DNA of 64,000 nt from Nemertoderma westbladi (Eukaryota; Animalia; Xenacoelomorpha). The position numbers and the translations under genes were made by a program. The stretch spans positions 186,001 to 250,000 of the forward strand of contig JAUCBJ010009136.1 of the NCBI GenBank assembly GCA_032718475.1, in the 5' to 3' direction. Under the pieces are notes generated by a model. It had not been told where the DNA came from and made no database searches. It saw nothing but the letters and a program-made list of their open reading frames with translations. Position 1 is the first letter of the stretch. Every line of letters starts with the position of its first letter. Shown here piece after piece: positions 41,401-62,659 of the stretch.

Positions 41401-43522
41401 AATAATCGCTACACTCTCGAAATAATAATCGCTACGCTCTTGAAATAATAATCACTACACTCTCGAAATAATAATCGCTATGCTCTCGAAATAATAATTG
41501 CTATGCTCTCGAAATAATAATCGCTACACTCTCGAAATAATAATCGCTACGCTCTCGAAATAATAATTGCTATGCTCTCGAAATAATAATCGCTACACTC
41601 TCGAAATAATAATCGCTACGCTCTCGAAATAATAATCGCTACGCTGTTGAAATAATAATCGCTACACTCTCGAAATAATAATCGCTACGCTCTCGAAATA
41701 ATAATCGCTACGCTGTTGAAATAATAATCACTACACTCTCGAAATAATAATCGCTACGCTCTCGAAATAATAATTGCTATGCTCTCGAAATAATAATCGC
41801 TATGCTCTCGGAATGCTACGCTCTCGAAATAATAATCGCTACGCTCTCGAAATAATAATCGCTACACTGTTGAAATAATAATCGCTACACTCTCGAAATA
41901 ATAATCACTACGCTGTTGAAATAATAATCGCTACACTCTCGAAATAATAATCACTATGCTGTTGAAATAATAATCGCTACACTCTCGAAATAATAATCGC
42001 TATGCTCTCGAAATAATAATCGCTACGCTGTTGAAATAATAATCGCTACACTCTCGAAATAATAATCACTACACTCTCGAAATAATAATCGCTACGCTCT
42101 CGAAATAATAATTGCTATGCTCTCGAAATAATAATCGCTACGCTCTCGAAATAATAATCGCTACGCTCTCGAAATAATAATCGCTATGCTCTCGAAATAA
42201 TAATCACTACACTCTCGAAATAATAATCGCTACGCTCTCGAAATAATAATTGCTATGCTCTCGAAATAATAATCGCTACACTCTCAAAATAATAATCGCT
42301 ACGCTCTCGAAATAATAATTGCTATGCTCTCGAAATAATAATCGCTACACTCTCGAAATAATAATCGCTACGCTCTCAAAATAATAATCGCTACGCTGTT
42401 GAAATAATAATCGCTACACTCTCGAAATAATAATCGCTACGCTCTCGAAATAATAATCGCTACGCTCTCGAAATAATAATCACTACGCTGTTGAAATAAT
42501 AATCGCTCGGCTCTCGAAATAATAATCGCTACGCTCTCGAAATAATAATCGCTACGCTTTCGAAATAATAATCGCTACACTCTCGAAATAATAATCGCTA
42601 CACTCTCGAAATAATAATCGCTATGCTCTCGAAATAATAATCACTACACTCTCGAAATAATAATCGCTACGCTCTCGAAATAATAATCAATACGCTCTCG
42701 AAATAATAATCGCTACGCTCTCGAAATAATAATCGCTACGCTCTCGAAATAATAATCGCTACACTCTCGAAATAATAATCGCTACACTCTCGAAATAATA
42801 ATTGCTACACTCTCGAAATAATAATCGCTACGCTCTCGAAATAATAATCGCTACACTCTCGAAATAATAATCGCTACACTCTCGACATAATTATCGCTAT
42901 GCTCTTGAAATAATAATCGCTACGCTCTCGAAATAATAATTGCTATGCTCTCGAAATAATAATCGCTACGCTGTTGAAATAATAATCGCTACGCTCTCGA
43001 AATAATAATCACTACGCTCTCGAAATAATAATCGCTACGCTCTCGAAATAATAATCGCTACACTCTCGAAATAATAATCGCTACACTCTCGAAATAATAA
43101 TCGCTACGCTCTCGAAATAATAATCGCTACACTCTCGAAATAATAATCGCTACACTCTCGACATAATTATCGCTATGCTCTTGAAATAATAATCGCTACG
43201 CTCTCGAAATAATAATCGCTACGCTCTCGAAATAATAATCGCTACGCTCTCGAAATAATAATTGCTACACTCTCGAAATAATAATCGCTACACTCTCGAA
43301 ATAATAATCGCTACACTCTCGAAATAATAATCGCTACGCTCTCGAAATAATAATCGCTACACTCTCGAAATAATAATCGCTACACTCTCGACATAATTAT
43401 CGCTATGCTCTTGAAATAATAATCGCTACGCTCTCGAAATAATAATTGCTATGCTCTCGAAATAATAATCGCTACGCTGTTGAAATAATAATCGCTACGC
43501 TCTCGAAATAATAATCACTACG
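38440..43522. repeat. Tandem satellite, 23-bp unit GCTACGCTCTCGAAATAATAATC (left part, interrupted by the BEL element)
   Basis: About 220 copies; resumes in phase after 61598. Confidence 0.98.
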
Positions 43523-43649
43523 TATAGAATTATATTCCCTAAATGCCGTGGATTTTCAAAATTTTTATTTTATTCGGATTAACTTTGTAAAGATTGCTTT
43601 GAGTTCTCATTCGTATTGGTTCTATCATTTGTACATCTATCGGTCAAGT

Positions 43650-43736
43650 GGTTCAGTAGCTCAGTCGGTAGAGCGTTGGAAACTATATGTGTAGTAGGTA
43701 TCGAGTTCGAATCCTAGTAAGTGCGAATTATTTTTT
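43650..43736 (+). promoter_or_regulatory. tRNA-like Pol III unit in the LTR (A box, B box, T6 terminator); second copy at 59839-59925
   Basis: TAGCTCAGTCGGTAGAGC (A box/D-arm), GAGTTCGAATCC (B box), then TTTTTT. Acceptor and T stems do not pair well. Confidence 0.7.
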
Positions 43737-43793
43737 GTACAGAATTTCAACTCGTTTAAATTAACCGCTACAAATTAATTGCATTTGTCTGTA

Positions 43794-43939
43794 CCAATGA
43801 GATTGTAGTTATTTTATTGTAACCAATGTCGTGCAAGTTATATATTAGCTGGACCAATAGCTATCTTTAAAACCTTGTTAGAACCCATAGAACAATCGAG
43901 AATTTTCTCGATTGATTGCGGCACAAATTTGCTATAAAA
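43794..43939 (+). promoter_or_regulatory. LTR Pol II promoter: three CCAAT boxes and a TATA box
   Basis: CCAAT at 43794, 43823 and 43854 (~30-bp spacing); palindrome CAATCGAGAA/TTCTCGATTG; TATAAAA at 43933; TTAGTT/TCAGTT initiator-like motifs downstream; AATAAA at 44053. Confidence 0.65.
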
Positions 43940-45132
43940 AGGTGCGATTTGTTCATTAGTTATATATATTCTCTCAGTTATTCAGTTATCTGATATTTGT
44001 TTATTCTGTCATTAGTTTTCAGATTACATTGTATTATAATTATATCTTCTGTAATAAAGTCAGAATATTCTCTCAGCTTTTCTATCTGTTTTACTATGGA
44101 TTCACTACGGTGAACAAACTTAGGGACAGGATGGCCGGCTAGAGATCGGGCCGCAGCAATGAACGGGAACATCACGGGAATGTAGACGAGAGACAACCCG
44201 CAATACCATTTAGAGTTATTCGCCCATCGCCTGAAAGGTTAGACAGCGTTCGACAGTGTCCATTGCATTAGAACTTGTAGGCTAGGGGGGTTGCTGTGTT
44301 TTCACCTGAATTGGGATTGTACCGTTCAGGCGGTAGGGCAGTTTACGTACTAGGCGCAAATAAATTGAGGCTATCAGGGATATACTAACATCTACCGTGT
44401 CCCCGCCAACGCCCTAATAGGAAGTTACCCGGACTACCTGGGTGACTAAAATTCTAGATAGGAGCCAGGATAGCTATTAGTACCCGTACGCCTACAGTAG
44501 TAAACTAACACATCTCTTCTTAGTATCAGGGACCTGGTACCTAAAATTGCCGAATTCTGGGCGTAGTATTAACCTTATGCCTGAATTTGAGTCCTGGAAA
44601 TACGCAAGAGGGGAAGGAACCTTATCATTTGTGAGTATTGGACCTACAAGTTACAAAATTAGAATATTCGTAAAATGCACACCGTACCCAGTAATTATAT
44701 ATGTGAAGGAGCAAAACTGTTTTGACCGTTCAGAATTAACACACGCGCGTTAGAAATTATTTACACCTCGAAATATATAAAATTAACTTTGTCCGTACTG
44801 TGCTTTGCCCGCTAGTTAGACATCTCCAAATCTCTGCCTGTACCTAGCTAGCGTCTCTTCGCCCAACCATATAAATCACACCGCGGCAAAGTATACGAGC
44901 CCCTTAGTCCGTCAGTGAGTCAGCCTGACTTTAGGATTCGCTGCGCGGGATTTGTTTTATCGAAGTTTGTCTGCTCGTAGACTGTTTTCTGCCTCACCGG
45001 TTATAAGAGATCGATACTGCAATATATTCGCTTACTTAGAGTTTACTGTTTTGGTGAGAAGGTCGGATTTATGATTTGATTTACAAACTTTACAGTAGGA
45101 TATTGCAGGTATTGTTACCGTCTCTTCCAATA

Positions 45133-45143
45133 GTAGGAATGTG
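45133..45143 (+). other. Primer-binding-site position, non-canonical (GTAGGAATGTG)
   Basis: Immediately follows the 5' LTR, lacks TGG, and is the exact reverse complement of 60564-60574 in the intact LTR. Confidence 0.55.
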
Positions 45144-46169
45144 TTTTACTGAACTACGGTTCGGTAGGACTAAAGTTTTTTGAAAATTTTGTATTTTGAG
45201 GTAAAAATTTGTATTTGATTAGCTAAGTGCTAATTTTTTGAAATAAAATTTGATTTGAACCGCGTGTAAAATATTTTTGGAATTGAATACCGGTGTTTAA
45301 AAAAGGGTTTAAATACCATATTGTACCGGTACAAAATTTTCGTAAAGTAAAACCTAACTCTTTTGTTTTTCAGGATTCAGAACTCATTTCTAGACTGTAA
45401 CGGGAGCAAGACCGTGTTTAGCAAGTTTGGGAGATAGATAACTCAACAACTTTGGTTGGGAAAATCGCGTTTCGTCCGCAACGTTAAAAACGGAAAGGTT
45501 CACGTTCGGTTTGTATCTGGGAATCTGTTTTTCTGGAGAATCATTGGAGTGGGTGAGTTTGAAAAGTTGCATAAATAAGTTAGGCATTACCGTATTAGTT
45601 AAAATTATTGTGGGTTCCACTGTCTCAAGTATTTATGCATTCCGTATGATTTCTTTGTTCATTGCTGAATTAGTCCGTATTATTGTATTTAATTTATCTT
45701 TTGATAACGCATATCGTTATCCGATTTATTTGTTATAAAATTGGCCGCTAGGCTAATTTTATTATATACTTATTCCGTGACATTTATTTGCTGTAAAATT
45801 GGCCGTTTAGGCTAATTTTATCCATCTGCTATAAAATCGGCCGGTAGGCTAATTTTATAAGACTGTAATTAGTACCGTTTTGTACAAATACGGTAAACTC
45901 GATACTTTGACACTCACTTTACTTGACTTACAACTACCGAAATGAGTGACAAACAAGACTATACGAAAAATACACAAACCGACTATGACTCATGTGACGG
46001 AGATAAGTCAGCAGCGGAAGAACAACAGGGGAAGACTCGCGAGCCTACCGAACCTACACCGTGTGCGTCACCAGTACATCCAACGGGAGTACCGGATGCC
46101 GTAGTACGAGGTGACGGCAGGACCGAGGACTTTCTAAGTGTTCCGCAACCTTGATATAGGGAAACGGAC

Positions 46170-49100
46170 ATGGTAAGTTCAGCAGGAAGCCAGGAAAGTG
46201 TGGTTAGAAGCGTCGGAGGTTACATGGCGCATATAACCAGGAGTATTGGAGAAGGTCATCGCATATTAGACGGGTTGACCGCTCCGATGTCTCGATTCGA
46301 GTTCTACACCCTCCAGGTTAGGGTACAGAGTAAAGTATATAAGTCCGTAGATAATCTAGTTGGCCTACAAGATCTAGCTAGACAGAGACAGGACATGGAT
46401 ACTCAACTTAGAATCCTCGAGAAACTAATGATCGCTAGAGAGAAACTGATCCAGTTTAAGTCGACGATTAGACAGATACAACAGGAACAAGCGGACCAGT
46501 TGTTAGGTGAGTCAGTTTCGGACGAATTATTACAGCCCGAGGAAGAACAGGAATTGTACCGATTGGATGGACAATTGAAACATTTGACGGACCACTTACG
46601 TATGTGCGGCGAAGACGTCAGCGATTCGGAAACCGTGCCGGAATATACGAGGGAAACTTCACCCGTACGAATCGAATCGGCACCGGGAATACTGGACCAA
46701 TCGTTAGTGAGTATTCGCAGCGAAATTGGCGAGATAAGTATAGTGACGTCAGAAATTTCCAGACAGCAACAACAGCACGACAGACAACGACGAGAAGCGG
46801 AGGAACAAGCACAACTGTTGACGGCACAAGCAGCGATGCAAGAAGAGAAACTACGCGTTGCGAATGTTGCAAGAATCTCTCATCTGCAAGAACAAGCCGA
46901 GTTGGAAGCAGCCGAGATGGAAAGGTTGGAGCTAGAAATAGCACAGCGAACAGCGACAGCTGAGTTAGCGCAACAAGCGGCAGCAGCTGAGTTAGAACGA
47001 CAAGCAGCAGCAGCGGAGTCGGAGCGACGAGCAGCAGCAGCGGAGTCGGAGCGACGAGCAGCAACAGCGGAACTAGAGCGACGAGCAGCGGAGTTGGAAG
47101 AACACAAGCGAGTTTCGGAAGCAAGAGCTGAAATGAAAAAACGGCAAATAAAGGCTCAATCAGCGATAAGACAAGCGGAGCTCGAGGCGCAACAACAACA
47201 GACGGAACAACGCGAGAAGGAAGTTAAACTTCATTTCGAACTCGGAAAGAAGGCGAGAGAATTAGCCAATGCGAAGGAAGATCTGGATCTACAAGCCCGC
47301 GATCGATCGATGAGATCTCGAGATGGACACGATCTAGACCAGTTAGAGGTAAGGCACCGCCAAATCCAGGAACGAATGAAGGAAGGTTCGGTAGGGGCAC
47401 CTGGACGAGAAAGACAATTAGTTAAGGACTTATGTCAAAGATTCCCTCAGGTAACTCCTATGTTTGCACCTGTTACGACTAAAGAACCTGTTTCGATTGC
47501 TGGTAGCAGTGATATCTCTCCTATCCATGGTGTGACGGAACACAGGTTTGTTATTCCGGACAAGTTTATACCTTCAAGAGCAACGTCGTCGCCTATTCCG
47601 AAAGTCAAGGTAAGTAACCCGCCGATTACAGATCGTAGTAGTTTGTTGACTGGACCTGCACTACTGACGACTAAACAGGTGAGTCCACCGTCGACCCCTA
47701 AACCTGTTACACACTACGCTTACCCAATGACGTTTCGACCAACAAGGCCTTTGGATTCAAAAGCGGTCATTCGCCCACCGATTCAGTTTACATCGCAATC
47801 TACGACTTCGAGGAAGACTTGTGAGCCTACCGAACAACGGAGAACAGTGGAGACGCGACCGTTCAACCAGTGTACATCGCAATCTACGACTTCGAGGAAG
47901 ACTTGTGAGCCTACCGAACAACGGAGACTAGTGGATACGCGACCGTTCAACCAGTGTACATCGCAATCTACGACTTCGAGGAAGACTTGTGAGCCTACCG
48001 AACAACGGAGAATAGTGGACGATGTTCCGAAACGGAACGTTAGAATTCGTACGACGCAACGAACGCGAGCACGTCGACCACCATATCCAGATGATAGTAG
48101 TACTTCGAGCGAATCGGATTACCCGAAACGCGAGGTATTTAGAACAGGGGCGGCCGATGAATATAAACGCGAGCGTTCAGACAACTCCTTTGCAGACAAT
48201 CCTCCACAGAATACACCAACACAGAAGGCGTTACAACCAACGGACGCAATTAGTACACAACAGTTCGCCGACATCATGCGACCAGTTGTTAACAAGTTGG
48301 CTCAGATCGAGGAACGTCTGGAGGAAGGTTACACCGACAGTTCGAGAAATTCCGAATTCGAACACAATAGACACCCGAAGGAACCACAAAGACCGGTACC
48401 TTCAAAACACACATCGTATCAGGGAAAGGCGCCAAGAAGGGAGAATATCAACCAGGTTACCAACCAAGGACGCGAAACTCTGAACGTTGCCGAGGAGATA
48501 GCGAAATTCGCAGCCAGACAAGGATTGCCGGTACAACAACCACCGAAGTTTTCCGGTAGCTCAAAACACTGGCATACTTTCGTAGACTATATCGAATCCC
48601 AGATCGCCGTGTGCGCCTTTACATCACGGGAGAAGTTTAATTACCTGCTTCAAACGTTGTCAGGAGAACCTAAACGTTTGGCGGAGACTTTCGTCGGTGT
48701 ACCGGACGCTTTCGAACTAGCGTACGATCGTTTAACTTCGATATACGGAGGTACAGTTAGTATGGCCAGGTCAGTAATAGAGGAACTCTGTAAGGGAGGG
48801 GCTATCACTAAACCCGTCGACTTACTAAAACTAGCTGACGAGATCAAGAACGCTATCACTACCTTAAGATCAATTGGACAACTTGATTACGGGAATACCC
48901 CTACAGTCCTATTAAAGATCATAGGACGACTCCACCATCGACTTCGTCGGGAGTGGAGGAAGGTCGAATACCAGCGAGAAGAGCGGGGAGGATTCTTAAA
49001 ATTAGAAGATGTGTACCTTTTAATATCCAGGGAGGCGGTAGTAGAAACTCGATCTAACTACACCGACCAGCACATCGTGGCAGAAGGGATCACATTGCCA

Positions 49101-52100
49101 TCCTCCAACCGACAAAAACCCCAGACAACATCCACTAAGACGGCCACTTACACCACACCGACGGAATCACGACAATTCTCGGACGGAGGTAGGGTATCTG
49201 CGCCCATTGGGACAAAACAAACGAGACAGCAACTTGGTACCGACTTCAGTGGCTGCCAATACTGCGAGCATCTAGGTAAGCGGTATATCGGTCACAAGTT
49301 ACGAGGTTGTCGACAATTTCGCGAGTTGAACTCGGAAGAGCGACGGCTGCAAATACGGCCACTGGACTCTTGTTGGCGGTGTACGCGACACGGACACGTC
49401 CGTAAAGATTGCCCAAATACCGACACTTGTCCATCCTGTGGACGCAACCACGACGGTCTGCTCCACACAGACAGCCACACGCCGACGAAACGCTTCGCCA
49501 GGGAACACCCGGAAGCAGCAGCGAGATGTGATGCGGCTTACCGAAAACGAGAATCGAAAACGACTCCAACCTTCGTGACCCATATTGAGGATTGCTTCTC
49601 AGAACAATCCGGATCGTCGGACGAAGAATCAGAAGACGACGAATATTCCAATGGAGACGAACAACCGTCGATCGCGCTTCTGACCACTGACCAACTGAAG
49701 GGATTCAGTGTAATCCCGATTAAGATCACTGGCACAAAGGGGAGTAAGAGGATCTACGCGATTCTAGATTCAGCCTCATCTCATAGCTACGTGGATGAAA
49801 AGATAGCTGACGTAGTGACGGATCTTAAACAAGGTAAGCATGTCAGTTATACAGTAAGTAGTATGCACGGACAGCGTGCAATACCAGTAACACGAGTTAA
49901 GTTGGACTTAGACTCTCTTCTTCCAAAATCGCAGCACAGCGAGAGGGAGAGGTCTTTGTTGCCCTTTAGAGATCTAACCTTTGCGGCCACGAAGGACTTT
50001 AGTAACCTACTAGGTCCAGTGCCGGAACAATCTCTAGAGGACCGTAAGTATTTCAGACACCTTGGTGTACCCGAATGTCCTGTCAATTATAGATCGGTAG
50101 CCATGCTGATCGGGACGGACCAATTCAACCTACATCAGGTGTGGGAAACTAGACCATCGGCAGTTGTAGCGGGAAACGCATACGCCTGCAGAACGCCGAT
50201 AGGGTGGTATACTCGAGCGCCTATGCGCACACTAGACGTAAGTGACGAGGAAGACGATGTACAGAGTACATGTAGTTTATTAACTACAAATTCAATTCAT
50301 TCCTTTTCACACGACGTGAACCATACTACACTACAGTCGACAAAACATAACAGACGTGTAACTAGTATGATAAGTCACAAGGAGCAGCTAATTCACCAGG
50401 TGAGTTTAGAACTTGGGGAGAAGACGAGTCAGCTAGAGATTCCATCGACGACAGATGATAGGCTTGCGAGTCTACCTACCCCAATAACCTCAACAGTGCC
50501 CGTCGAGATCGATGATGATGCGTTGAGAAATCATCAGTTGGAACAAGCTGTACTAGACAAGGAATTAACGGAGAAGACTATCAGGTGGTTGGAACAAGAT
50601 ACAGCTGAACCTGGTAGCTACGAACCTTGTATGTCAGAACAGGAGAAACAATCTCTGAAGATCATGGAAGATACTATCCGCCAGACGAAAGACGGACATT
50701 ATGAGGTAGGGATGTTATGGCGTAGCCAAAGTCCTAAACTTATAAACAACTATCCACTAGCCTTGAGACGTCTACACTCAATACGGCAACGTCTATTAAA
50801 GGACGAGAAAGCCCATCTGCAGTATAACACTCAGATGGAGACGTATTTGACTAAGGGATACGCTATCCGAATGACTAACCCAGAGATAGTGACTAACCAG
50901 ACATACTACCTGCCACATCACTATGTGAGACATCCCGACAAACCAGATAAAGTACGCGTAGTCAATGATTGTGCGGCTCTATTTGAGGGAATGTCCCTCA
51001 ATAGTGAGTTGATGGATGGACCAAACATGAATAATTATCTTATGGGGGTGATTATGCGCTTCCGTCAGCGACAAGTAGCTTTTACTTGTGACGTTGAAGC
51101 GATGTTTCACCAAGTGAGAGCGTTAGAGCGAGACAGAGACAGTTTGCGGTTCCTCTGGTACCCGGAAGGAGACTTAAGTCTACCACCGGCGACTTACCAA
51201 ATGCAAGTTCGCGTTTTCGGTGCCAGAGACAGCCCAAATTGCACGATGTACGCCCTAAAGCAGGCCGCTAGAGATCAGAAACACCTGTATGACCCAGAGA
51301 TAATTAGAATTGTGGAACGTGACTTTTATGTAGATGACGGTTTACAGAGTTGCGACACAGTAGAACGTGCTACAACAGTAGCACATCAATTACGGGACTG
51401 CTTAGCGGGCGGAGGTTTTAACCTCACCAAATTCGCCTCAAACAGTGCCGAATTAGTAGACTCATTCGGGACGACTGAGCGTGGAGGTGGTGACATAGAC
51501 CTAGAGTTCGAACCACTACCGACGACTAAGGTGTTGGGGCTCTTTTGGGACCCAAACACAGACAACTTCCGAGTGAAAGTGAGACTGGACAGTCAAGAGA
51601 ACACACTGACAAAGAGATCATGCTTGTCAAAGTTGAGCCGATTGTTCGATCCGTTAGGATTCATCAGTCCAGTGATACTGCAAGCCCGCATTTATATGCG
51701 CAGTATATGGAAGGATGGACTAACATGGGACGAGCCGATCTCATCAGACCAAGTGGACTTATGGAAGACCTGGGAGGCGGAATTATCTTCGCTAGAGGAT
51801 TATTCCATACCCAGGGTTTACTTTCCATTACAAAGTACATTTCCTGACAACTTGGAACTACACTGTTTTTCTGACGCCAGTGACAACGGTTTTGGTGTGG
51901 CAGCGTACTTGCGCAGACAAGTAGAATCAGACGAGTTCGATGTTTCGCTCATTACTTCTAAGGCTAAGACCATGCCTACTAAGTATATGACGACACCACG
52001 AGCCGAGCTACAAGCCGCAACCCTGTCAACCACCATCGTGAACCTCATACAGACAGAACTACAGTCGAGTTTACAGATATTTTATTGGACTGACGCAACG

Positions 52101-54671
52101 TTGGTTTTATTTTACATAAACAACGACACACTCGAATTCAAGACATTCGTAGCTAACCGTCGCGCAGAAATTCTAGATCGTTCAATAAAAGAGGATTGGC
52201 GACATTGTCCCGGACCACAAAACCCAGCTGATATTGCGTCGCGAGGAATGATGCCTGAGGAATTCTGTAAACCGGAGAACAAAGAATTTTGGCAACACGG
52301 ACCCCAATTCTTGCAGAAATCGACACAAGATTGGCCTCCGTTATACGACAACAAATCTAACACTATCCCAAAGGACGCCGAAATCAAGAAACCAAAAAAG
52401 GGGAAGACAAAGAAAAAGACAACGGCGGCAAAACTCAAGAAGAAACCGAAGGCAAAATGGAAAGATATAACTTCAAAGGTCAAGAGAGGAAGACTTGCGA
52501 GCCTTTCTACACCAGACATATCGCCAGACGGTCAACCAGACACGTTACTAGACGGTCAACCAGACATTCTACCAGACATTAGTAACGCATTGACAAACAG
52601 TAAAGCCGCAGTTTCCCTATTGGAGCGGCCTTCTATTGACAAACAACCAGATACGTTACCAGACGTATCGCCAGACACATTACTAGACAGTCGACTAGAC
52701 ACTAGTAACGTACTGACAAATAGTGAAGCCGCAGTTTCTCTATTGGAGCGGCCTTGTATTGACAAACTACCAATTTTGACACACTTGAGCAACCATAAGC
52801 AAGGTGAAACCTCATGTATTACAGATGTGGGTAGTACCTACGCTAATGTAAATACAGGTGTTACTTTGCGCTCAAGAGACATACCGAACTTGCAACCTAT
52901 GGTGAGACCTGGGATTAATGTCGGCAGGAAAATAAGTTTACCGAAACCTGCTGACCCCATAGAGTTCAAACCACCATTAACGATCGACTTACAAAGTACT
53001 GACGATCAAGGTAAGAAGACGAAGAAGGACAAATTACTTGTAGACCCCGACGGATCAACAGTCAACAAGGGAATACTTACCGGCGGACCCGTGGGCCCTT
53101 CTAGTAATTCAAAACCTTCCAAAATCTCCATTGACTTACCTGATGACGTCACAAATACTCATGTCGACCGTATTGTAAACCTAACAGATTCTTGGACAAA
53201 CGCTTGCCGAAAATTAGCGTGGATTGTACGTTTTGTACAATACGTTAAAGGCAAACGTGACTTTACACGTCGACTTACATTGGCTGAGATTGACAGGTGT
53301 GAGATTAAATTAATTCGCCATTACCAACTGCGATATTTCGCGCGCGAATTCACATCCATAAATCAAGGTCAACCAATCAAGTTGTCACCAATACTGAGTT
53401 GGAGTCCGATTATTTATAATGGCTTAATTTATCATAAATCTCGGCTTCAAAACATTGACTTTAACACAAACTTTAGGTACCCAATAATAATACCGCAACA
53501 CCACGAACTACAACGTGCAATGATACTGGACGCACATCTACATCTGAAACACGCTGGAAGACACCACTGTCTTTCCTACTTACGTACTAGATTTGTATTA
53601 ATTAGACCCAGTAAAGCATTAAGTTCAGTGACACGTACGTGTATTATTTGTAAAAAGGTACATTCTAGAATAGGTACCCAAGAAATGAGTGAACTACCAC
53701 AAGCACGACTTCAAGCATTCAAACCACCTTTTACAGAGACTGGAATTGATTGCTTTGGTCCCATACATACGAAACGTGGACGTATACTAGTAAAACGCTG
53801 GGGACTGATTTTCACATGTATGTCCAGTAGGGCAGTTCATATTGAACGTGTGATGGATCTTTCCACCTACGCGTTTATACTAGCACTGCGGCGATTTATC
53901 GCTAGACGCGGACTAGTAAAATGCTTGTACTCAGACCAAGGGACAAACTTTGTTGGTGCTCGGAATGAGATTGCTAGAGCCTTTAAGAAATTAGATCATG
54001 ATCAAATCTCGAACGAACTACAACCTCACAAGATTGTTTGGAAGTTCAACCCTCCAGATAGTCCTTGGAGAGGCGGAGTCTGGGAGAGATTGATTAGATC
54101 TATAAAGACAGCCATGGCAAAGGTCATTCCAGTAAACCACATATTAACAGACGACCAACTGACAACATTGTTTGTTGAAATCGAGGCAATACTAAATACT
54201 AGACCAATAGTATTAGTACCCGATGACAAACAATCTCAATTTGCTTTAACACCAGCACACCTGCTAATGCAGGCACCGACTACTTTGACGCCGATTTCTA
54301 TTCCAATAGAAAGCGACAGCTACGGTAGAAAAGCGTGGAAAATCACGCAACTACTAGCTAACAAATTCTGGGAAATATGGCAAAACCATTATTTGCCCTC
54401 TATTTCTGCCAGAACAACTTGGTACAATAACACCCGCGCATTAAAGCCGGGAGATCACGTGCTGTTGGCAGAAGTGAATCTAAAAAGACGCTTCTGGATA
54501 ACAGGTGTAATTTTAGCCACACATCCATCTATGGATGGAGTGACAAGAACTGTGACGGTACGGACAATTGACGGTCGTACAGTAGACAGACCGACTCAAC
54601 GTCTCGTACTTCTTGAAGAGACTCGTAACGAGTCTGGAGACTACAAATCTCCACCTAATACTAGTAAATAA
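46170..54671 (+). CDS. BEL/Pao Gag-Pol polyprotein (2833 aa; probably starts at 45942 with an in-frame TGA at 46152)
   Basis: Coiled-coil N-terminus; Gag core PKFSG..W..F; triple Cys/His knuckle (CQYC..H..C, CWRC..GH...C, CPSC..H..LLH); protease AILDSAS; RT YLPHH, RVVNDCAA, DVEAMFHQV, FYVDDG; RNase H FSDAS, PRAEL, WTDAT, NPADIASRG; integrase H-H-CIIC, GIDCFGP, YSDQGTNF, GGVWERLI. Confidence 0.97.
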   Translation: MVSSAGSQESVVRSVGGYMAHITRSIGEGHRILDGLTAPMSRFEFYTLQVRVQSKVYKSVDNLVGLQDLARQRQDMDTQLRILEKLMIAREKLIQFKSTIRQIQQEQADQLLGESVSDELLQPEEEQELYRLDGQLKHLTDHLRMCGEDVSDSETVPEYTRETSPVRIESAPGILDQSLVSIRSEIGEISIVTSEISRQQQQHDRQRREAEEQAQLLTAQAAMQEEKLRVANVARISHLQEQAELEAAEMERLELEIAQRTATAELAQQAAAAELERQAAAAESERRAAAAESERRAATAELERRAAELEEHKRVSEARAEMKKRQIKAQSAIRQAELEAQQQQTEQREKEVKLHFELGKKARELANAKEDLDLQARDRSMRSRDGHDLDQLEVRHRQIQERMKEGSVGAPGRERQLVKDLCQRFPQVTPMFAPVTTKEPVSIAGSSDISPIHGVTEHRFVIPDKFIPSRATSSPIPKVKVSNPPITDRSSLLTGPALLTTKQVSPPSTPKPVTHYAYPMTFRPTRPLDSKAVIRPPIQFTSQSTTSRKTCEPTEQRRTVETRPFNQCTSQSTTSRKTCEPTEQRRLVDTRPFNQCTSQSTTSRKTCEPTEQRRIVDDVPKRNVRIRTTQRTRARRPPYPDDSSTSSESDYPKREVFRTGAADEYKRERSDNSFADNPPQNTPTQKALQPTDAISTQQFADIMRPVVNKLAQIEERLEEGYTDSSRNSEFEHNRHPKEPQRPVPSKHTSYQGKAPRRENINQVTNQGRETLNVAEEIAKFAARQGLPVQQPPKFSGSSKHWHTFVDYIESQIAVCAFTSREKFNYLLQTLSGEPKRLAETFVGVPDAFELAYDRLTSIYGGTVSMARSVIEELCKGGAITKPVDLLKLADEIKNAITTLRSIGQLDYGNTPTVLLKIIGRLHHRLRREWRKVEYQREERGGFLKLEDVYLLISREAVVETRSNYTDQHIVAEGITLPSSNRQKPQTTSTKTATYTTPTESRQFSDGGRVSAPIGTKQTRQQLGTDFSGCQYCEHLGKRYIGHKLRGCRQFRELNSEERRLQIRPLDSCWRCTRHGHVRKDCPNTDTCPSCGRNHDGLLHTDSHTPTKRFAREHPEAAARCDAAYRKRESKTTPTFVTHIEDCFSEQSGSSDEESEDDEYSNGDEQPSIALLTTDQLKGFSVIPIKITGTKGSKRIYAILDSASSHSYVDEKIADVVTDLKQGKHVSYTVSSMHGQRAIPVTRVKLDLDSLLPKSQHSERERSLLPFRDLTFAATKDFSNLLGPVPEQSLEDRKYFRHLGVPECPVNYRSVAMLIGTDQFNLHQVWETRPSAVVAGNAYACRTPIGWYTRAPMRTLDVSDEEDDVQSTCSLLTTNSIHSFSHDVNHTTLQSTKHNRRVTSMISHKEQLIHQVSLELGEKTSQLEIPSTTDDRLASLPTPITSTVPVEIDDDALRNHQLEQAVLDKELTEKTIRWLEQDTAEPGSYEPCMSEQEKQSLKIMEDTIRQTKDGHYEVGMLWRSQSPKLINNYPLALRRLHSIRQRLLKDEKAHLQYNTQMETYLTKGYAIRMTNPEIVTNQTYYLPHHYVRHPDKPDKVRVVNDCAALFEGMSLNSELMDGPNMNNYLMGVIMRFRQRQVAFTCDVEAMFHQVRALERDRDSLRFLWYPEGDLSLPPATYQMQVRVFGARDSPNCTMYALKQAARDQKHLYDPEIIRIVERDFYVDDGLQSCDTVERATTVAHQLRDCLAGGGFNLTKFASNSAELVDSFGTTERGGGDIDLEFEPLPTTKVLGLFWDPNTDNFRVKVRLDSQENTLTKRSCLSKLSRLFDPLGFISPVILQARIYMRSIWKDGLTWDEPISSDQVDLWKTWEAELSSLEDYSIPRVYFPLQSTFPDNLELHCFSDASDNGFGVAAYLRRQVESDEFDVSLITSKAKTMPTKYMTTPRAELQAATLSTTIVNLIQTELQSSLQIFYWTDATLVLFYINNDTLEFKTFVANRRAEILDRSIKEDWRHCPGPQNPADIASRGMMPEEFCKPENKEFWQHGPQFLQKSTQDWPPLYDNKSNTIPKDAEIKKPKKGKTKKKTTAAKLKKKPKAKWKDITSKVKRGRLASLSTPDISPDGQPDTLLDGQPDILPDISNALTNSKAAVSLLERPSIDKQPDTLPDVSPDTLLDSRLDTSNVLTNSEAAVSLLERPCIDKLPILTHLSNHKQGETSCITDVGSTYANVNTGVTLRSRDIPNLQPMVRPGINVGRKISLPKPADPIEFKPPLTIDLQSTDDQGKKTKKDKLLVDPDGSTVNKGILTGGPVGPSSNSKPSKISIDLPDDVTNTHVDRIVNLTDSWTNACRKLAWIVRFVQYVKGKRDFTRRLTLAEIDRCEIKLIRHYQLRYFAREFTSINQGQPIKLSPILSWSPIIYNGLIYHKSRLQNIDFNTNFRYPIIIPQHHELQRAMILDAHLHLKHAGRHHCLSYLRTRFVLIRPSKALSSVTRTCIICKKVHSRIGTQEMSELPQARLQAFKPPFTETGIDCFGPIHTKRGRILVKRWGLIFTCMSSRAVHIERVMDLSTYAFILALRRFIARRGLVKCLYSDQGTNFVGARNEIARAFKKLDHDQISNELQPHKIVWKFNPPDSPWRGGVWERLIRSIKTAMAKVIPVNHILTDDQLTTLFVEIEAILNTRPIVLVPDDKQSQFALTPAHLLMQAPTTLTPISIPIESDSYGRKAWKITQLLANKFWEIWQNHYLPSISARTTWYNNTRALKPGDHVLLAEVNLKRRFWITGVILATHPSMDGVTRTVTVRTIDGRTVDRPTQRLVLLEETRNESGDYKSPPNTSK

Positions 54672-55331
54672 TTAGGAGTTTACAAATAGATTTCCACGTA
54701 CCTGTACACTGTAGTAAGGACAGCGGTAGAATTCCATTGTCTTTATATGTGAACATTGAGGGTAGTACCCTTATGTGTCACATAGGAGCGGGATTTGTAG
54801 GTATAAGAAATGGAATTCTACTTGGAACTCACAATATTGAGACATTTTCGAAATTTTAGACAATCCATTTGGATTTGAAAATTTTTAAAATTTTCTCCAG
54901 TGAATAGATTTCAGGGTACAGTCGGGTGGAACTTAAAATTAGAGAAACAAGAGAGGAAGACTTGCGAGCCTTTCTTAAAAATTTTAATTAAATTTTACAC
55001 GGTCTTGTTTCAATAAGTTACGTCAATAAATAGACTCCCCTATATTTATTACTAATTCTTGACTGCTTATTTTCTGATAATAGTTTGGGATCAAAAAGTG
55101 AGTATTTTAGACTCACAGCCAGTTTAGCCCAAATTCGTTTTTACTTCGGCAAAAATTTTAGATAAGAAGCAGCGTGTCATTAAAGAAACCCTAGATCTTA
55201 GGCTATGGGTAGGAGGTTAGAGCGTTGTCGAAGCCCAAAGGGCAGACGAAACTCTCACGTCTCCTCACAACTAACTACAAACTCTGTTGTATTCCCTCTA
55301 GTAGTAATGATTATGTAACTACACCCTAATT

Positions 55332-56507
55332 ATGGAGAAAGGGATACAAGGAGAGCCGAGATGGGGATATGATATCCAAGAGGAGGCAGCAGCGCCATTC
55401 GAAAGATTTGGAGCCAAGGATTATACTATATTTGGTATAAAAGAATTATCGGAAAGTACAGCGAAACTCGCGAGAACTAAATATGACTCGAACGTATTAA
55501 AGAGAAGGCAAAACGCATTAAACGAAAGAATCGAAAGTTTGCGCCAAACCTTCAACGAACTTTACCCGTACGATGCTTTGTGTGATACGGGAGACATTAG
55601 CGAAGACCCCGATACTGAAATTAGTCGTTTGTATCATACCATGCAATACCTAAAGGCGCACGAACCTATGCCCGCAGTACGCGATGAATTCGATGGAATG
55701 CATCTTTACAGACGAACTCGAGGGGACGATAGAGAAACCAAGGAAGCATTTTCAGTTTATAAACTTTATTATCAATGCGGTTCTTGTATGCGCGAACAAC
55801 GAAATGCGATTCCGATGCGTTTGAATAAGGAAAATCCCGAACCGATATTGGCGAGGTGTTCGAATCATCAACAACTACGCTACCAGGAAGGAGGGTATCC
55901 TTTATCGAATCCATATCATTCATTTGCTATGACCGGACCAAAGGCGGGAGAAACTGTCATTTACCCACCTAAGGTTGTTGAACCCGATGTATTTGAACTT
56001 ACGCTGGACGAGGCGAATCAGTCAACCCGCGAAAAGAAAGAAGCTCTTAGCCTATACAGAGCCTACAAGGCTTTCGAGAAAGGTGAGATGGAAGAATGGG
56101 GTGGAAGACTCGCGAGCCTACCTTGCCATTGGACGTCACACGATCAAACTTCAGCTAAGGAGATGACACCGGAAGTTTTCGAGAGCATAAACTTTGCTCA
56201 AAACGTTATTCAGAGATTACAGATTGCATCCCCGGAGAGGCCAAGAGAAATGCAACCGTATAGTACTTCAACTACGAAACCATTGAGTACGACACTCAAT
56301 TTCCCTATTAGTATACCAGTCCGACAGGATACGACGTACGAAATACCCATCGTGGATCATCCAGAAATCATTTCAAACTTGGAGTTTCTTCCTGCAGTTG
56401 TTTTCAGCGATATGAGTAAGATATATGATTTATGTAGACATATTACTCAAAAGGTCGTGCGTTGTGCACGAGGTTCAAGATTTCAAGATTTTCAAGGAAC
56501 TGGATAG
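55332..56507 (+). CDS. Accessory ORF A of the BEL element (391 aa), unknown function, possible CxxC...CxxH zinc site
   Basis: Open, non-repetitive ORF in the env slot; YQCGSC...ARCSNH; no evident signal peptide or transmembrane segment; overlaps ORF B (+1 frame). Confidence 0.7.
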   Translation: MEKGIQGEPRWGYDIQEEAAAPFERFGAKDYTIFGIKELSESTAKLARTKYDSNVLKRRQNALNERIESLRQTFNELYPYDALCDTGDISEDPDTEISRLYHTMQYLKAHEPMPAVRDEFDGMHLYRRTRGDDRETKEAFSVYKLYYQCGSCMREQRNAIPMRLNKENPEPILARCSNHQQLRYQEGGYPLSNPYHSFAMTGPKAGETVIYPPKVVEPDVFELTLDEANQSTREKKEALSLYRAYKAFEKGEMEEWGGRLASLPCHWTSHDQTSAKEMTPEVFESINFAQNVIQRLQIASPERPREMQPYSTSTTKPLSTTLNFPISIPVRQDTTYEIPIVDHPEIISNLEFLPAVVFSDMSKIYDLCRHITQKVVRCARGSRFQDFQGTG

Positions 56508-59061
56508 AGCTGGTGCCGACATAGCTCCGAGTAATCTGAAAGGATATCTAACCAAGACGATTCGTTTATGGATTGGAACCGGAACCTTCGAGTCGGATAC
56601 AGATATTGCCGCAGATTGGCGAGGTAAGGTTATTCGTTTCGATGAGGATAAGGATATAGAGAAGATTTGGCAACCTTCGGAAGAATTGTTGGATGAATGG
56701 ACTAGGACGTTTAGATCGTTTCAGGAAAACGGTTATATGTTTTACGATAACGAGGGCGGCAGTCATCAGCAGAGTTTGACTTCTAAGACTATACAGATTA
56801 GAGCGGCGGACGGAGTCCTGCACGTTTTCAGTAGACAGAGGAGCGACAAACGAATGCCGATACCTCCAGCGAATACAAAGCGACACCATCTTATCACCGA
56901 TATAGTAAAGAAGATGGACCAAGCTTGTAATATTGACGCTAGAATGCTACCGAAGATGGTAAGAAACATGATTTTAGATAAAACTGTTGTAAAGGTTGGA
57001 TCAGGAGTAAGGGAGGATTTAATTAGCGACTTTGCCGGCATGACGGACAGCGATGACCGACTACCGACACCATACGTCGACACTCGACCTCTTATTCTGT
57101 GGTCTATAGAACAGGGATATTTTCGTGAGTATAATACTCAGAAGACTGGAACTGGATACATTTCCTACCTGTTATTCAATTGGGATTATAAGGAAGGTAA
57201 AAGAAACAAGTATATTGAAACTTATGGAGAAGGTGATACTCCAGATATGAGTGAGTTTGAATCACAGCTTAAATGGAGAGGATGCGTGTATTGGGCTATT
57301 ACGTCACCTCCAAGAGCGGTCTTACAATATTATTTAGCGATAGAGTCGTCAGTGAATGTTTGCCTAATCGCCGACATTGTGTCTCGGACTCTCAAAAGAC
57401 ATCCACTTTGTCTCGGAGAAGATCATACGTTCTACATGGAAGGGAGAATTCGTACCGACGTGTTTAGACGATTCCTTGAACCCTTCTACAACTCCGACGC
57501 TCAGTGTAATGCCTTTACTCGAGCAGGATTTAGTATATTTCGAGACGTGTATCTTTGCTGTGCGGGATCTCTTATCGAAAGACCATCTATGTTTACATTG
57601 TTACCCTATGAAGGAGAACGTATCGTGGAAATTACGGATGAATCACGGCAGACGCGCGCGCCTATCGGTCACCTTGGTGATGAATTCGAAGTAACTACTA
57701 CGATCGCCGACGATCCTTTAGAGGAACTTCTTGAGATAGAAAGGAACCTCCCGAAGAAATCTCAGACGGAGATTCGACAACTTGAAGCAACAGATGCTAT
57801 AGTTTGTATACAACCTTCAGAAACCTACCAACCCATAGACCCAGATGATTATGATTATAGTGTGGGAGGAAGCGCTCGACCGATTGGAGATCTTATATAC
57901 GAACGAGTGTGGTACCCTGCCAATACGATGTGTAGTAAATGTGGCGTCGCTGGACATCATATGGCAAAGTGCAGTGGAAAGCACATTACTACGACTCAGC
58001 TAATCTGTGGATGGTGTGGGGATCAAGGGTCTCATACCTTTTATACTTGCTGGAGATTTATGGCTCAATGTACTTATTGCAATATAAAGGGACATCGAGC
58101 ATCTGAATGCCAACTAAGAGACATACCTTATGAACACGAATCTGTAAAACTCGTGAGGAAGTTATTTGATGAGTGGGAAGATTTAGCCGACGAACATGTA
58201 TCGGCACAAAGAAGACGGTTTCCGATGAGAGCGCATCTCGGATTTTGGGCGGTAAATCCTCAGACGATGATGTCGGAAGGATATATCTCCGCTATGCCCC
58301 AATATGACGAACTTATCGAGGTTGTCGATATTTTGCCCCACGACAGCGGATTCCGAGTGGTGCGCGAGTATCTGTTACAAATTCACCCGGATAACAAAAA
58401 CACGTGGAATTTTCAGAAAGTCATTAATCGGATTACGTATGGTGAATTCGATCGTTTCCGAACTGAAAAGCGGAACAAGGGAGCTTGGTTAACCGTCGCA
58501 TGGGCATACCGAGCCGCGTTTTACCACAAACGTATACGAGCGAGCGTATTCGAGGAAGAAGAGGTCCTAGAGGCGACAAATATACCAGCCACTCCGGTTG
58601 CGCCGTCTGCACGTCACCCTCGGGAGGACGGGCAGGGTAGGATCATACGGGTCCAAAAGGTGGGCCAACAATTAAAGAAAATTATTAATGTAGAAGAACG
58701 CAAGGGAGTTGAGCCGACTATTCGAGTTACTCGGGATACGGTATCACTTCCAAGAGAACCAGTAGGAGGATCGGGACATACACCAGCTGATCAACAGGGG
58801 GCGCAAGCTACTCTTGGGTCTGCGTCGTCCACTTCTCGCGCGTTCCCAGACGTTCTACCAACTGTAGTGACGACTGATCGGTCACGAGGAATCGGTCGAG
58901 GTTTTGGGATGCTAAATAAACGAATTTGCGAGGAAATAGTCGCACCGTCTCTCAACGTCCCAAGTAAACCAGTGACTCGCCCCACAAGTCCCATATCGCG
59001 AGCAAAGTCACCTGTGCGCAGTTTTCGAGGACGCGGCAGGGCTCGATCCACTAAGCGATAA
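56425..59061 (+). CDS. Accessory ORF B (878 aa): WRN/EXD/Mut-7-like DEDDy 3'-5' exonuclease domain, three CCHC zinc knuckles and a basic RG/RS tail
   Basis: ExoI-like MFYDNEG..TIQI; LPKMVRNMILDKTVVKVGSGVRED (compare WRN-family LP..L..LL.D..I.KVG.G...D); YVDT; ExoIII-like W....P....QYYLAIE; knuckles CSKCGVAGHHMAKC, CGWCGDQGSHTFYTC, CTYCNIKGHRASEC. Confidence 0.75.
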   Translation: MIYVDILLKRSCVVHEVQDFKIFKELDRAGADIAPSNLKGYLTKTIRLWIGTGTFESDTDIAADWRGKVIRFDEDKDIEKIWQPSEELLDEWTRTFRSFQENGYMFYDNEGGSHQQSLTSKTIQIRAADGVLHVFSRQRSDKRMPIPPANTKRHHLITDIVKKMDQACNIDARMLPKMVRNMILDKTVVKVGSGVREDLISDFAGMTDSDDRLPTPYVDTRPLILWSIEQGYFREYNTQKTGTGYISYLLFNWDYKEGKRNKYIETYGEGDTPDMSEFESQLKWRGCVYWAITSPPRAVLQYYLAIESSVNVCLIADIVSRTLKRHPLCLGEDHTFYMEGRIRTDVFRRFLEPFYNSDAQCNAFTRAGFSIFRDVYLCCAGSLIERPSMFTLLPYEGERIVEITDESRQTRAPIGHLGDEFEVTTTIADDPLEELLEIERNLPKKSQTEIRQLEATDAIVCIQPSETYQPIDPDDYDYSVGGSARPIGDLIYERVWYPANTMCSKCGVAGHHMAKCSGKHITTTQLICGWCGDQGSHTFYTCWRFMAQCTYCNIKGHRASECQLRDIPYEHESVKLVRKLFDEWEDLADEHVSAQRRRFPMRAHLGFWAVNPQTMMSEGYISAMPQYDELIEVVDILPHDSGFRVVREYLLQIHPDNKNTWNFQKVINRITYGEFDRFRTEKRNKGAWLTVAWAYRAAFYHKRIRASVFEEEEVLEATNIPATPVAPSARHPREDGQGRIIRVQKVGQQLKKIINVEERKGVEPTIRVTRDTVSLPREPVGGSGHTPADQQGAQATLGSASSTSRAFPDVLPTVVTTDRSRGIGRGFGMLNKRICEEIVAPSLNVPSKPVTRPTSPISRAKSPVRSFRGRGRARSTKR

Positions 59062-59711
59062 AAGGGAGGGCAAGGGTGGATGGAAGACTCGTGGGCCTTT
59101 CTTATGATTTGTGATTTATTTGAATTTATATTTATATTTGTGTTTATTCCGAACTTAAGCAATTTGTATTGTTCCGAATTTGTATTTAGAAAGTTTATAT
59201 TTAAAAGGAACTTATATTTGAAAGATTTATGTTTCATATTTGAGATGCAAAGGAGTTTATATTATTCTAAACTTATGCAGTTTATATTTAGTAAAGATTT
59301 ATATTTAGTAAGAATTTATATTTTATATTTGTAATTATTCCGAACTTATGCAATTTATATTATTCCGAACTTATGCAATTTATATTGTTCCGAATATTAT
59401 GTAATTTACATTTTATAGGCAGTATTTACAGTGAAATAGAAATAATTGTTTGAATTTATGTAATATTGAGATGCAATAGATTTATATTGGTGAATTTAAT
59501 TTAGATTTATATTGTACTTACTTAGTAAAGCCTTAAATACGTAAAGTTTGAATTTGTAATTATTTTGTATCGAATCATTACGTAGAAAGGAAGTATTGTT
59601 TGAAATTTAATTGTAAATATGTAAGTACGCCCTAAGTATTCTATAGTTTGATTGATTATTGGTGAAAACCGTATATTTTATGCACGATAATATCCTGTTT
59701 TCATGGAGCGG

Positions 59712-61598
59712 TATAGAATTATATTCCCTAAATGCCGTGGATTTTCAAAATTTTTATTTTATTCGGATTAACTTTGTAAAGATTGCTTTGAGTTCTCATT
59801 CGTATTGGTTCTAACATTTGTACATCTATCGGTCAAGTGGTTCAGTAGCTCAGTCGGTAGAGCGTTGGAAATTATATGTGTAGTAGGTATCGAGTTCGAA
59901 TCCTAGTAAGTGCGAATTATTTTTTGTACAGAATTTCAACTCGTTTAAATTAACCGCTACAAATTAATTGCATTTGTCTGTACCAATGAGATTGTAGTTA
60001 TTTGATTGTAACCAATGTCGTGCAAGTTATATATTAGCTGGACCAATAGCTATCTTTAAAACCTTGTTAGAACCCATAGAACAATCGAGAATTTTCTCGA
60101 TTGATTGCGGCACAAATTTGCTATAAAAAGGTGCGATTTGTTCATTAGTTATATATATTCTCTCAGTTATTCAGTTATCTGATATTTGTTTATTCTGTCA
60201 TTAGTTTTCAGATTACATTGTATTATAATTATATCTTCTGTAATAAAGTCAGAATATTCTCTCAGCTTTTCTATCTGTTTTACTATGGATTCACTACGGT
60301 GAACAAACTTAGGGACAGGATGGCCGGCTAGAGATCGGGCCGCAGCAATGAACGGGAACATCACGGGAATGTAGACGAGAGACAACCCGCAATACCATTT
60401 AGAGTTATTCGCCCATCGCCTGAAAGGTTAGACAGCGTTCGATCCTTGCTACCTAAGTATAAGACCAAAAGATCAAAAGGTAGAAGTAGTGACACGCTGT
60501 AAGCCCAAAATTACATCATAGGGACTGTACTGTCTTGATTCAGGAAAACCCACAGTAGACCTTCACATTCCTACGGGGGAGGGAGAGCGCAGGCAGATAC
60601 TAGTACGCAGATAGGACGTAGGCACACCGGTACAAGGCATACACATTGGTTAGGGTGCAGCAAACTGTACGCTTAACTCTTGCTAAGTACAGGTGCGTGT
60701 GCGACTATTTGCAGTACGACAGTGTCCATTGCATTAGAACTTGTAGGCTAGGGGGGTTGCTGTGTTTTCACCTGAATTGGGATTGTACCGTTCAGGCGGT
60801 AGGGCAGTTTACGTACTAGGCGCAAATAAATTGAGGCTATCAGGGATATACTAACATCTACCGTGTCCCCGCCAACGCCCTAATAGGAAGTTACCCGGAC
60901 TACCTGGGTGACTAAAATTCTAGATAGGAGCCAGGATAGCTATTAGTACCCGTACGCCTACAGTAGTAAACTAACACATCTCTTCTTAGTATCAGGGACC
61001 TGGTACCTAAAATTGCCGAATTCTGGGCGTAGTATTAACCTTATGCCTGAATTTGAGTCCTGGAAATACGCAAGAGGGGAAGGAACCTTATCATTCGTGA
61101 GTATTGGACCTACAAGTTACAAAATTAGAATATTCGTAAAATGCACACCGTACCCAGTAATTATATATGTGAAGGAGCAAAACTGTTTTGACCGTTCAGA
61201 ATTAACACACGCGCGTTAGAAATTATTTACACCTCGAAATATATAAAATTAACTTTGTCCGTACTGTGCTTTGCCCGCTAGTTAGACATCTCCAAATCTC
61301 TGCCTGTACCTAGCTAGCGTCTCTTCGCCCAACCATATAAATCACACCGCGGCAAAGTATACGAGCCCCTTAGTCCGTCAGTGAGTCAGCCTGACTTTAG
61401 GATTCGCTGCGCGGGATTTGTTTTATCGAAGTTTGTCTGCTCGTAGACTGTTTTCTGCCTCACCGGTTATAAGAGATCGATACTGCAATATATTCGCTTA
61501 CTTAGAGTTTACTGTTTTGGTGAGAAGGTCGGATTTATGATTTGATTTACAAACTTTACAGTAGGATATTGCAGGTATTGTTACCGTCTCTTCCAATA
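59712..61598 (+). repeat. 3' LTR (1887 bp, intact form)
   Basis: Direct repeat of the 5' LTR plus 60443-60719; preceded by a short purine-rich GGAGCGG; followed by CTACG. Confidence 0.96.
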
Positions 61599-62605: not shown

Positions 62606-62659
62606 TACAAATATAGTCTACTTTTTCATTTAAATAGTAAATAATATGTCAGAAACGTA

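Follow-up and report, generated by a model that had tools for sequence, protein, structure and literature searches.

The window analysed here is a stretch of 64,000 nucleotides (64 kb) from Nemertoderma westbladi (contig JAUCBJ010009136.1, positions 186,001 to 250,000). It contains a long terminal repeat (LTR) retrotransposon of the BEL/Pao superfamily that probably encodes the primer of its own reverse transcription. The features that define the element and its candidate primer are the following:

43518-43522 (+): left target-site duplication CTACG, inside the 23-bp satellite at 38440-43522
43523-61598 (+): whole BEL/Pao element, 18,076 bp, inserted in the 23-bp satellite
43523-45132 (+): 5' LTR, 1610 bp, TA..TA, without a 277-bp stretch (junction near 44250)
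45133-45143 (+): primer-binding position GTAGGAATGTG, adjoining the 5' LTR, not of the TGG type
45143-45170 (+): predicted hairpin of 12 bp, closed by a UACG tetraloop and immediately following the primer site (z = -3.99; equal stability in 1 of 200 shuffles)
59712-61598 (+): 3' LTR, 1887 bp, with TATAAAA at 60122 and AATAAA at 60242 and 60825
60564-60574 (+): 11-mer CACATTCCTAC, candidate 3' end of a self-primer, at LTR position 853
60575-60582 (+): purine run adjoining the 11-bp duplex, predicted to form 8 bp with the LTR end
61599-61603 (+): right target-site duplication CTACG, after which the 23-bp satellite resumes up to 62604

An earlier, sequence-only reading of this DNA had described a young element with TA termini that lacks a tRNA-type primer-binding site and carries in its LTR an 11-mer complementary to the bases that follow the LTR. 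Ends and age are borne out: the element runs from TATAG to CAATA, both LTRs start and finish in TA, and the two copies differ by 4 substitutions over 1610 sites, plus 277 bp (60440-60716) that are present in the 3' copy only. Judged from this copy alone, a 6-bp duplication with an AT end would fit equally well; the 5-bp duplication is preferred because the loose ends of contigs start directly after 61598 in three of four sequencing runs and two related elements (see below) have 5-bp duplications. The lack of a tRNA-type site is likewise confirmed, there being no TGG after the 5' LTR before 45278, that is, 145 nt downstream. As for the complement, CACATTCCTAC matches the reverse complement of 45133-45143 exactly and is the sole copy of this 11-mer in the window, but it is found only in the 3' LTR, as it falls within the part missing from the 5' LTR. 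The gap of the 5' LTR has a 3-bp microhomology at its junction. A spliced intron was considered for this loss and rejected, since the ends of the stretch are not GT..AG on either strand and the microhomology is present. Contigs cover the 277-bp stretch in three of the four runs, none of the ten joints listed skips it, and the loss looks private to the window copy. A gap over 60404-60685 in run X5, which may be an RNA run, was left out of account.

The match between primer site and LTR is longer than chance would be expected to give. Under an order-2 model, the expected count of an 11-nt match in the LTR is 0.00034 (0.0016 for offsets 0-3), and a match of this length is reached at 6 of the 14,568 internal positions, the primer site among them. 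When 30-nt windows taken at every third LTR position were paired with the junction of LTR and primer site, the 11-mer site was the best partner in the LTR (-30.0 kcal/mol, the runner-up reaching -18.8). The predicted duplex is made up of 11 bp, a 4-nt bulge and 8 more pairs with the LTR end, and the rank of this second stem in the window element is 0.005. A primer extended by splicing was also tried for the window element and discarded, as the best split match is 8 nt long versus 11 contiguous nucleotides. No variant at a frequency of at least 2% falls within the 11-mer in four runs from three samples, and the contigs of two runs extend past the LTR with identical first eight bases. In the loose-end cells, an alternative letter that would preserve the pairing occurs at pair 9 on both sides (unphased, and in different runs), which may hint at compensation; the loose-end cell of one run fits worse further along.

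The same design recurs in related BEL/Pao loci. Eighty of these were collected from metagenome contigs, with 37-47% identity over the reverse transcriptase (RT) and RNase H: 43 are without an LTR pair, in 24 the pair is truncated at the contig end, and 13 have a readable LTR end. In ten of the 13 readable relatives the bases that follow the LTR have a complement of 10-15 nt (offset 0-4) in the LTR of the same element. Two of these complements are contiguous and the other eight are joined across a predicted GTRAG..YAG intron, LTR introns of 67-164 nt creating the complement when they are removed (L012, L018, L027, L039, L043, L048, L052 and L069). With mock primer sites treated by the same rules, the observed length was reached in none of 300 trials for nine loci and in one of 300 for one. 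A search limited to contiguous matches recovers a long complement in one of the 13, and a first pass with split matches at offsets 0-2 gave five positives. In a quick tree of 31 rows (the window element, the 13 readable loci and 17 further rows), L012 is closely related to L043, and L025 is nearly identical to L039 in its RT; otherwise the self-complementary relatives are spread over the tree, and the letters of the primer sites differ between families. The complement of L048 begins 31 nt past a TATA box, which corresponds to the geometry of Tf1, and those of L027 and L043 lie further in. A poly(A) hexamer is found 12-94 nt behind the complement in six of the ten. The internal regions of these ten relatives measure 5.7-7.0 kb, versus 14.6 kb in the window element.

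The self-encoded primer is thus well supported by a match beyond chance, by the best duplex that the LTR offers and by the recurrence of the design in relatives; as far as such patterns can tell, Tf1-like self-priming is likely to be widespread in BEL/Pao and independent of the exonuclease-like gene described below. Neither the TA 3' end nor the lack of a TGG site is special to the window element; two of the self-complementary relatives also end in TA. The TA..TA ends (59700-59716, 45125-45135) resemble the usual TG..CA ends extended by the 2-4 spacer bases located outside the LTRs of the relatives, as if the ends of the cDNA had been integrated untrimmed.

The coding frames of the element are listed below, with the name ORF B (open reading frame B) for the gene in the position of env:

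45942-46154 (+): 70-codon frame with an ATG start, in frame with gag-pol and closed by TGA
46155-54671 (+): gag-pol, 2838 aa from stop to stop, with DUF1759, three zinc knuckles, protease, RT (YVDD), RNase H (PF05380), integrase and DUF5641
55311-56507 (+): first frame of ORF B, 398 aa, with an acceptor-like site just upstream at 55301
56416-59061 (+): second frame of ORF B, 881 aa, predicted WRN-like 3'-5' exonuclease plus three zinc knuckles (57931-58110)

The order protease-RT-RNase H-integrase with Pao-type domains is the one that characterizes BEL/Pao, and the Pfam matches of gag-pol agree with it (PF05380, E = 2e-42; DUF5641, E = 4e-20; DUF1759, E = 7e-11). The Gag of BEL/Pao elements typically has three zinc knuckles; these are present in the window element, together with the LTRs and the target-site duplication. 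All 120 matches listed for the RT-RNase H region carry PF05380, the best five being 43-44% identical. The TGA between the 70-codon frame and gag-pol is possibly read through, or else a lesion. RNase H and integrase are separated by some 250 inserted codons of repetitive, lysine-rich sequence (52360-53130).

The sequence-only reading had seen in the env slot a DEDDy exonuclease joined to zinc knuckles and had tied it to the loss of the tRNA site. Members of the DEDDy family share the motifs D-x-E (Exo I), D (Exo II) and Y-x3-D (Exo III). The second frame of ORF B has a D-x-E motif (56740-56757), an Exo II-like motif (56992-57018) and a third acidic motif (57325-57345) that reads Y-x3-E where D is usual; its three knuckles match Pfam zf-CCHC with E = 0.012, below the cut-off. 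In the ESM Atlas, 24 of the 30 matches to residues 60-345 of the second frame belong to the PF01612 set and are WRN-like, with a score of 0.93, in a background in which shuffled proteins reach 0.9 in 4-10 of 100 cases. This match covers 173 of 256 features, PF01612 is carried by 38% of the members of the best such cluster, and the top three rows are unnamed clusters. The first frame reaches 0.77 at most and matches no family. Sequence comparison is blank: no relative of ORF B was found at E = 0.001 among 5735 word-search candidates, nor for its first 435 residues among 1.84 billion representatives, and no exonuclease family was matched in PDB, Pfam or PHROGs. Viral contigs, with 25 pattern matches, yielded no relatives. 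A pairwise comparison with RNase D gives E = 0.42; with an RNase D profile, the hmmsearch score lies below that of shuffles, hhalign aligns the Exo II region only (E = 0.08, probability 0.7%), and a forced alignment leaves Exo I and Exo III out of register. Single-sequence folds are unusable (mean predicted local distance difference test scores of 31.5 and 30.9). Of the earlier description, the zinc knuckles hold. ORF B is, however, split into two overlapping frames, for which recoding, splicing or a lesion are options, and the DEDDy assignment amounts to a supported lead that no database search has identified as such. Taken together, the motifs and the one language-model match suggest that ORF B likely adopts an exonuclease fold. 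No hydrophobic segment is present (the best mean over 19 residues is 1.4). Use of the acceptor at 55301 would provide the gene with an mRNA of its own.

In the 80 related loci, the search for ORF B returned only zinc-knuckle noise in two (E = 0.05 and 0.5). The proposed co-occurrence of the exonuclease with the loss of the tRNA site therefore fails in the direction that these loci cover, from primer type to ORF B: ten of the 13 readable relatives are self-complementary without ORF B, so that a missing tRNA site and a self-complement do not need the exonuclease. ORF B is probably accessory cargo rather than the maker of the primer.

Two further features of the element deserve description:

43645-43736 (+), with a copy at 59834-59925: tRNA-like stretch in U3 (the LTR part upstream of the transcript), with A-box and B-box-like motifs and a T6 run
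46033, 47815, 47899, 47983, 50460, 52491, 54958, 56106 and 59085 (span 46033-59098; no strand assigned): nine copies of a 14-bp quasi-palindromic motif

The tRNA-like stretch, on which neither ARAGORN nor Rfam makes a call, is possibly a polymerase III unit or the head of a short interspersed element within the LTR. In the same orientation, ten bases from about 43692 agree with the junction of LTR end and primer site at 9 positions out of 10. As a primer, the stretch was rejected because it pairs weakly with the primer site (-8.6 to -12.1 against -22.0 kcal/mol). The dispersed motif, which had been described as a hairpin, sits in coding frames (in different frames) and between genes, three of its copies belonging to one 84-bp tandem repeat. 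Its nine copies are specific to the element, with none in the window outside it and none in the 600,728 bases of the 80 related loci, but the hairpin is weak as RNA (-0.4 to -2.0 kcal/mol in the six canonical copies folded). The motif may serve as a packaging or protein-binding signal. Donor-like and acceptor-like splice sites are found at 61097, 61381 and 61520 (with twins in the 5' LTR), 45373, 45553, 46173 and 55301; an intron from U5 (the LTR part at the other end) to 45373 would remove the primer site.

Elsewhere in the window, an uninterrupted frame of 593 codons at 33779-35560 (-), GC-rich and lying between satellites, has a Pyr_redox_2 match and a weak AIF_C match and may be an apoptosis-inducing-factor-like gene or a retrocopy. 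Part of a further LTR element, with RT, RNase H and integrase, lies at 563-2888. Satellite arrays with units of 22, 21, 46, 41, 23 and 66 bp extend over 3425-43522 and 61599-64000, the element being inserted in the 23-bp array.

It seems reasonably probable that the element primes itself in a Tf1-like manner for which ORF B is not needed, ORF B being likely accessory cargo. Transcription would start from the TATA box at LTR position 411; since this precedes position 853, copies whose 5' LTR is whole would carry the 11-mer in the leader of their genomic RNA. This leader would fold back on the primer site, flanked by the 8-bp stem and the 12-bp hairpin, and an endonuclease cutting 3' of the 11-mer, in the simplest case the RNase H of the element as in Tf1, would leave a 3'-OH at the LTR boundary. 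A spliced RNA would serve to express ORF B, as for env, and its product would have a role elsewhere, either in the handling of RNA or in countering silencing by the host. The window copy, with a 5' LTR devoid of the 11-mer, would not self-prime from its leader. Where the complement is joined by splicing, an intron inherited in both LTRs would mean that the 3' copy stays unspliced and that the joined primer comes from a 5' copy or from another molecule, which favors a cut over the trimming of the genome's own 3' end, although a short LTR transcript might be trimmed in trans.

Several observations weigh against this account. In contrast to Tf1, some 410 nt separate the 11-mer from the likely start, and its distance to the LTR end is 1024 nt (86-216 nt in the relatives); a TATA box about 30 nt upstream of it is absent (the closest on that side being those at LTR positions 411 and 439), and the AATAAA at 60242 sits between the TATA box and the 11-mer. 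The invariance of the 11-mer says little because just 3 of 116 positions vary at 2%. The 8-bp second stem was rejected as a general feature, the best relative ranking only 0.056. The offsets of 0-4 and the GTRAG..YAG filter were fixed after 11 LTRs had been read. Among the relatives, L045 has a TGG-type site at +6 (L045:56-75) and no self-complement, so that both types of priming occur, and no self-complement was found in L025 and L076, whose LTR ends are unclear. Finally, the window RT is on a long branch (1.88) and its placement in the quick tree is unsure; the relatives are therefore distant and the lineage may have changed its mechanism.

Other scenarios may explain the complementarity. 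One is that the 11-base match arose by chance in a copy with a decayed primer site. This copy does show a 277-bp loss, a split ORF B and an upstream in-frame stop. Nevertheless, the expected count of 0.00034-0.0016, the few differences between the LTRs (4 of 1610 sites), the identical first eight bases after the LTR in the contigs of two runs and the presence of the design in ten of the 13 readable relatives largely refute this explanation, to which we attach hardly any weight. Another possibility is that the pairing serves as an RNA switch or in packaging and masks the primer site, the primer being a host RNA, for example an internal fragment of a tRNA. Local folding of the 11-mer with the G-run that follows it, together with the hairpin abutting the site, makes switching possible, and the LTR carries a tRNA-like stretch. 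Yet a host primer would fix the letters of the site, whereas the sites of the relatives are unlike each other and each matches its own LTR, and the tRNA-like stretch is a poor partner for the primer site. This explanation seems doubtful.

The remaining alternatives accept self-priming and differ in how the 3' end of the primer is made. According to the sequence-only reading, an RNA ending downstream of 60574, near the AATAAA at 60825, would pair with the primer site and be trimmed in the 3'-5' direction by ORF B up to the primer end. Such an RNA could be a short transcript of the LTR or the genomic RNA at its 3' end, and in this lineage the exonuclease of the element would have taken the place of a cut or of a host enzyme. 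The hexamer is indeed present at 60825-60830, that at 60242 having gone unmentioned. Trimming would be in keeping with the WRN-type exonuclease look of ORF B joined to zinc knuckles, with the poly(A) hexamers behind six of the ten complements, which make RNAs ending just past them plausible, with the RT on its own long branch, the offset of 0 and the TA..TA ends, and with the 3'-end processing raised as a role for such ORFs in passages of PMC5408684. Nevertheless, ten relatives share the primer design and lack ORF B, some 250 nt and a tail would need to be trimmed away, and the catalysis is predicted for a protein that has E for the usual D in its last motif and is split in two frames in this copy. 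The trimming had further been proposed to reach the edge of the duplex exactly at the LTR boundary; as the 8-bp stem continues 3' of the 11-mer, a trimming enzyme is instead predicted to stall early, short of that boundary. Maturation of the primer by ORF B therefore appears improbable to us. Equally improbable is the more ambitious scenario in which BEL/Pao elements are widely self-primed, often by means of host splicing, and this giant lineage would have captured a WRN-like exonuclease with zinc knuckles that, under the guidance of the dispersed motif, trims an LTR transcript to a primer whose end falls exactly on the LTR boundary, the TA..TA ends resulting from untrimmed integration. Alternatively, the primer end could be made by a host nuclease, through exosome-type trimming of a short LTR transcript or a host endonuclease, instead of RNase H or ORF B. 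Host RNA processing would already be involved in the eight of ten relatives that need host splicing for their complement, and a high-copy family could supply many LTR transcripts, but the one self-priming system presented as demonstrated uses RNase H, according to passages of PMC7175516 and PMC4600332. A host nuclease is thus an unlikely source of the primer end.

The preferred Tf1-like scenario has consequences beyond this element. Self-priming is placed in the Tf1/sushi and chromovirus branches of Ty3/gypsy in parts of PMC7175516, PMC4600332 and PMC3601003; the window element and ten of its 13 readable relatives would extend it to a second superfamily, often with a primer joined by splicing. 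Annotation tools that demand TG..CA ends and a tRNA site would overlook such elements or place their boundaries wrongly. ORF B adds a BEL/Pao case, without detectable relative, to the small set of retrotransposons with an exonuclease-like gene. If it were true that ORF B matures the primer, this would be the first function for such orphan genes, and the trimming would be a third way to prime LTR reverse transcription.

The sequence-only reading knew of no BEL element of this design. Neither self-priming nor an exonuclease ORF was found for BEL/Pao in the literature searched, which was open literature, outside subscription papers and Repbase, nor did a nematode BEL element reported to encode a tRNA-like primer of its own turn up there; the main text of PMC3118150 has no mention of primer, primer-binding site, tRNA or exonuclease. 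The combination of a self-primer, an exonuclease-like ORF and a giant BEL/Pao element appears undescribed and in this sense new, but each of its parts has a precedent in another lineage. For ORF B, the precedent is the DEDDy ORF3 in the env slot of the bdelloid LTR elements Juno and Vesta and of the Athena elements (Terminons), for which 3'-end processing and silencing are among the roles suggested in passages of PMC5408684; in what its main text offered, that paper does not mention primer-binding sites or link ORF3 to priming. Like the ORF3 of Juno and Vesta, ORF B is exonuclease-like, occupies the env slot and has one of its acidic motifs altered. It differs from the genes of Juno, Vesta and Athena in that these belong to other lineages, and it is far longer, with three zinc knuckles, a WRN-like embedding and no detectable sequence relative. 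A functional link between the self-primer and the exonuclease-like ORF is not supported.

Within its own superfamily, the element has the main attributes of the Belpaoviridae: Gag-PR-RT-RH-IN (Gag, protease, RT, RNase H and integrase) in one frame, Pao-type Pfam domains, LTRs, an extra ORF in the env position and, for the best five among the matches listed, 43-44% RT-RNase H identity to BEL/Pao proteins of marine invertebrates. The profile of the International Committee on Taxonomy of Viruses gives these elements a size of 4.2-10 kb, an LTR length of 0.2-1.2 kb and a primer site of 18 nt for tRNA-Arg or tRNA-Gly, and presents their replication as tRNA-primed and poorly understood (PMC8742986). 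The window element departs from it by its 18.1 kb, its LTR of 1.9 kb, its TA..TA ends and the absence of a tRNA 3'-end site, and its extra ORF has no hydrophobic segment. It is BEL/Pao by phylogeny but misfits the priming entry of the profile; as ten of the 13 readable relatives have a self-complement at that position instead, the tRNA site would not be a general feature of the group.

The closest parallel for the priming is found in Tf1, Tf2 and Tj1 (the Tf1/sushi group of Ty3/gypsy), in which, as here, an 11-base LTR segment complements the site that follows the LTR and there is no tRNA site. RNA structure flanking the Tf1 primer was reportedly described by Lin and Levin in 1997 and 1998. 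The Tf1 transcript's 11 initial bases act as primer after an RNase H cut behind base 11, as reported in passages of PMC7175516 and PMC4600332, and hairpin priming is tied to the chromoviruses in part of PMC3601003. Unlike that of the Tf1/sushi elements, the RT of the window element is of the BEL/Pao and not the Ty3/gypsy type; the resemblance may thus lie in a Tf1-like way of working, with a predicted cut, rather than in membership of that group.

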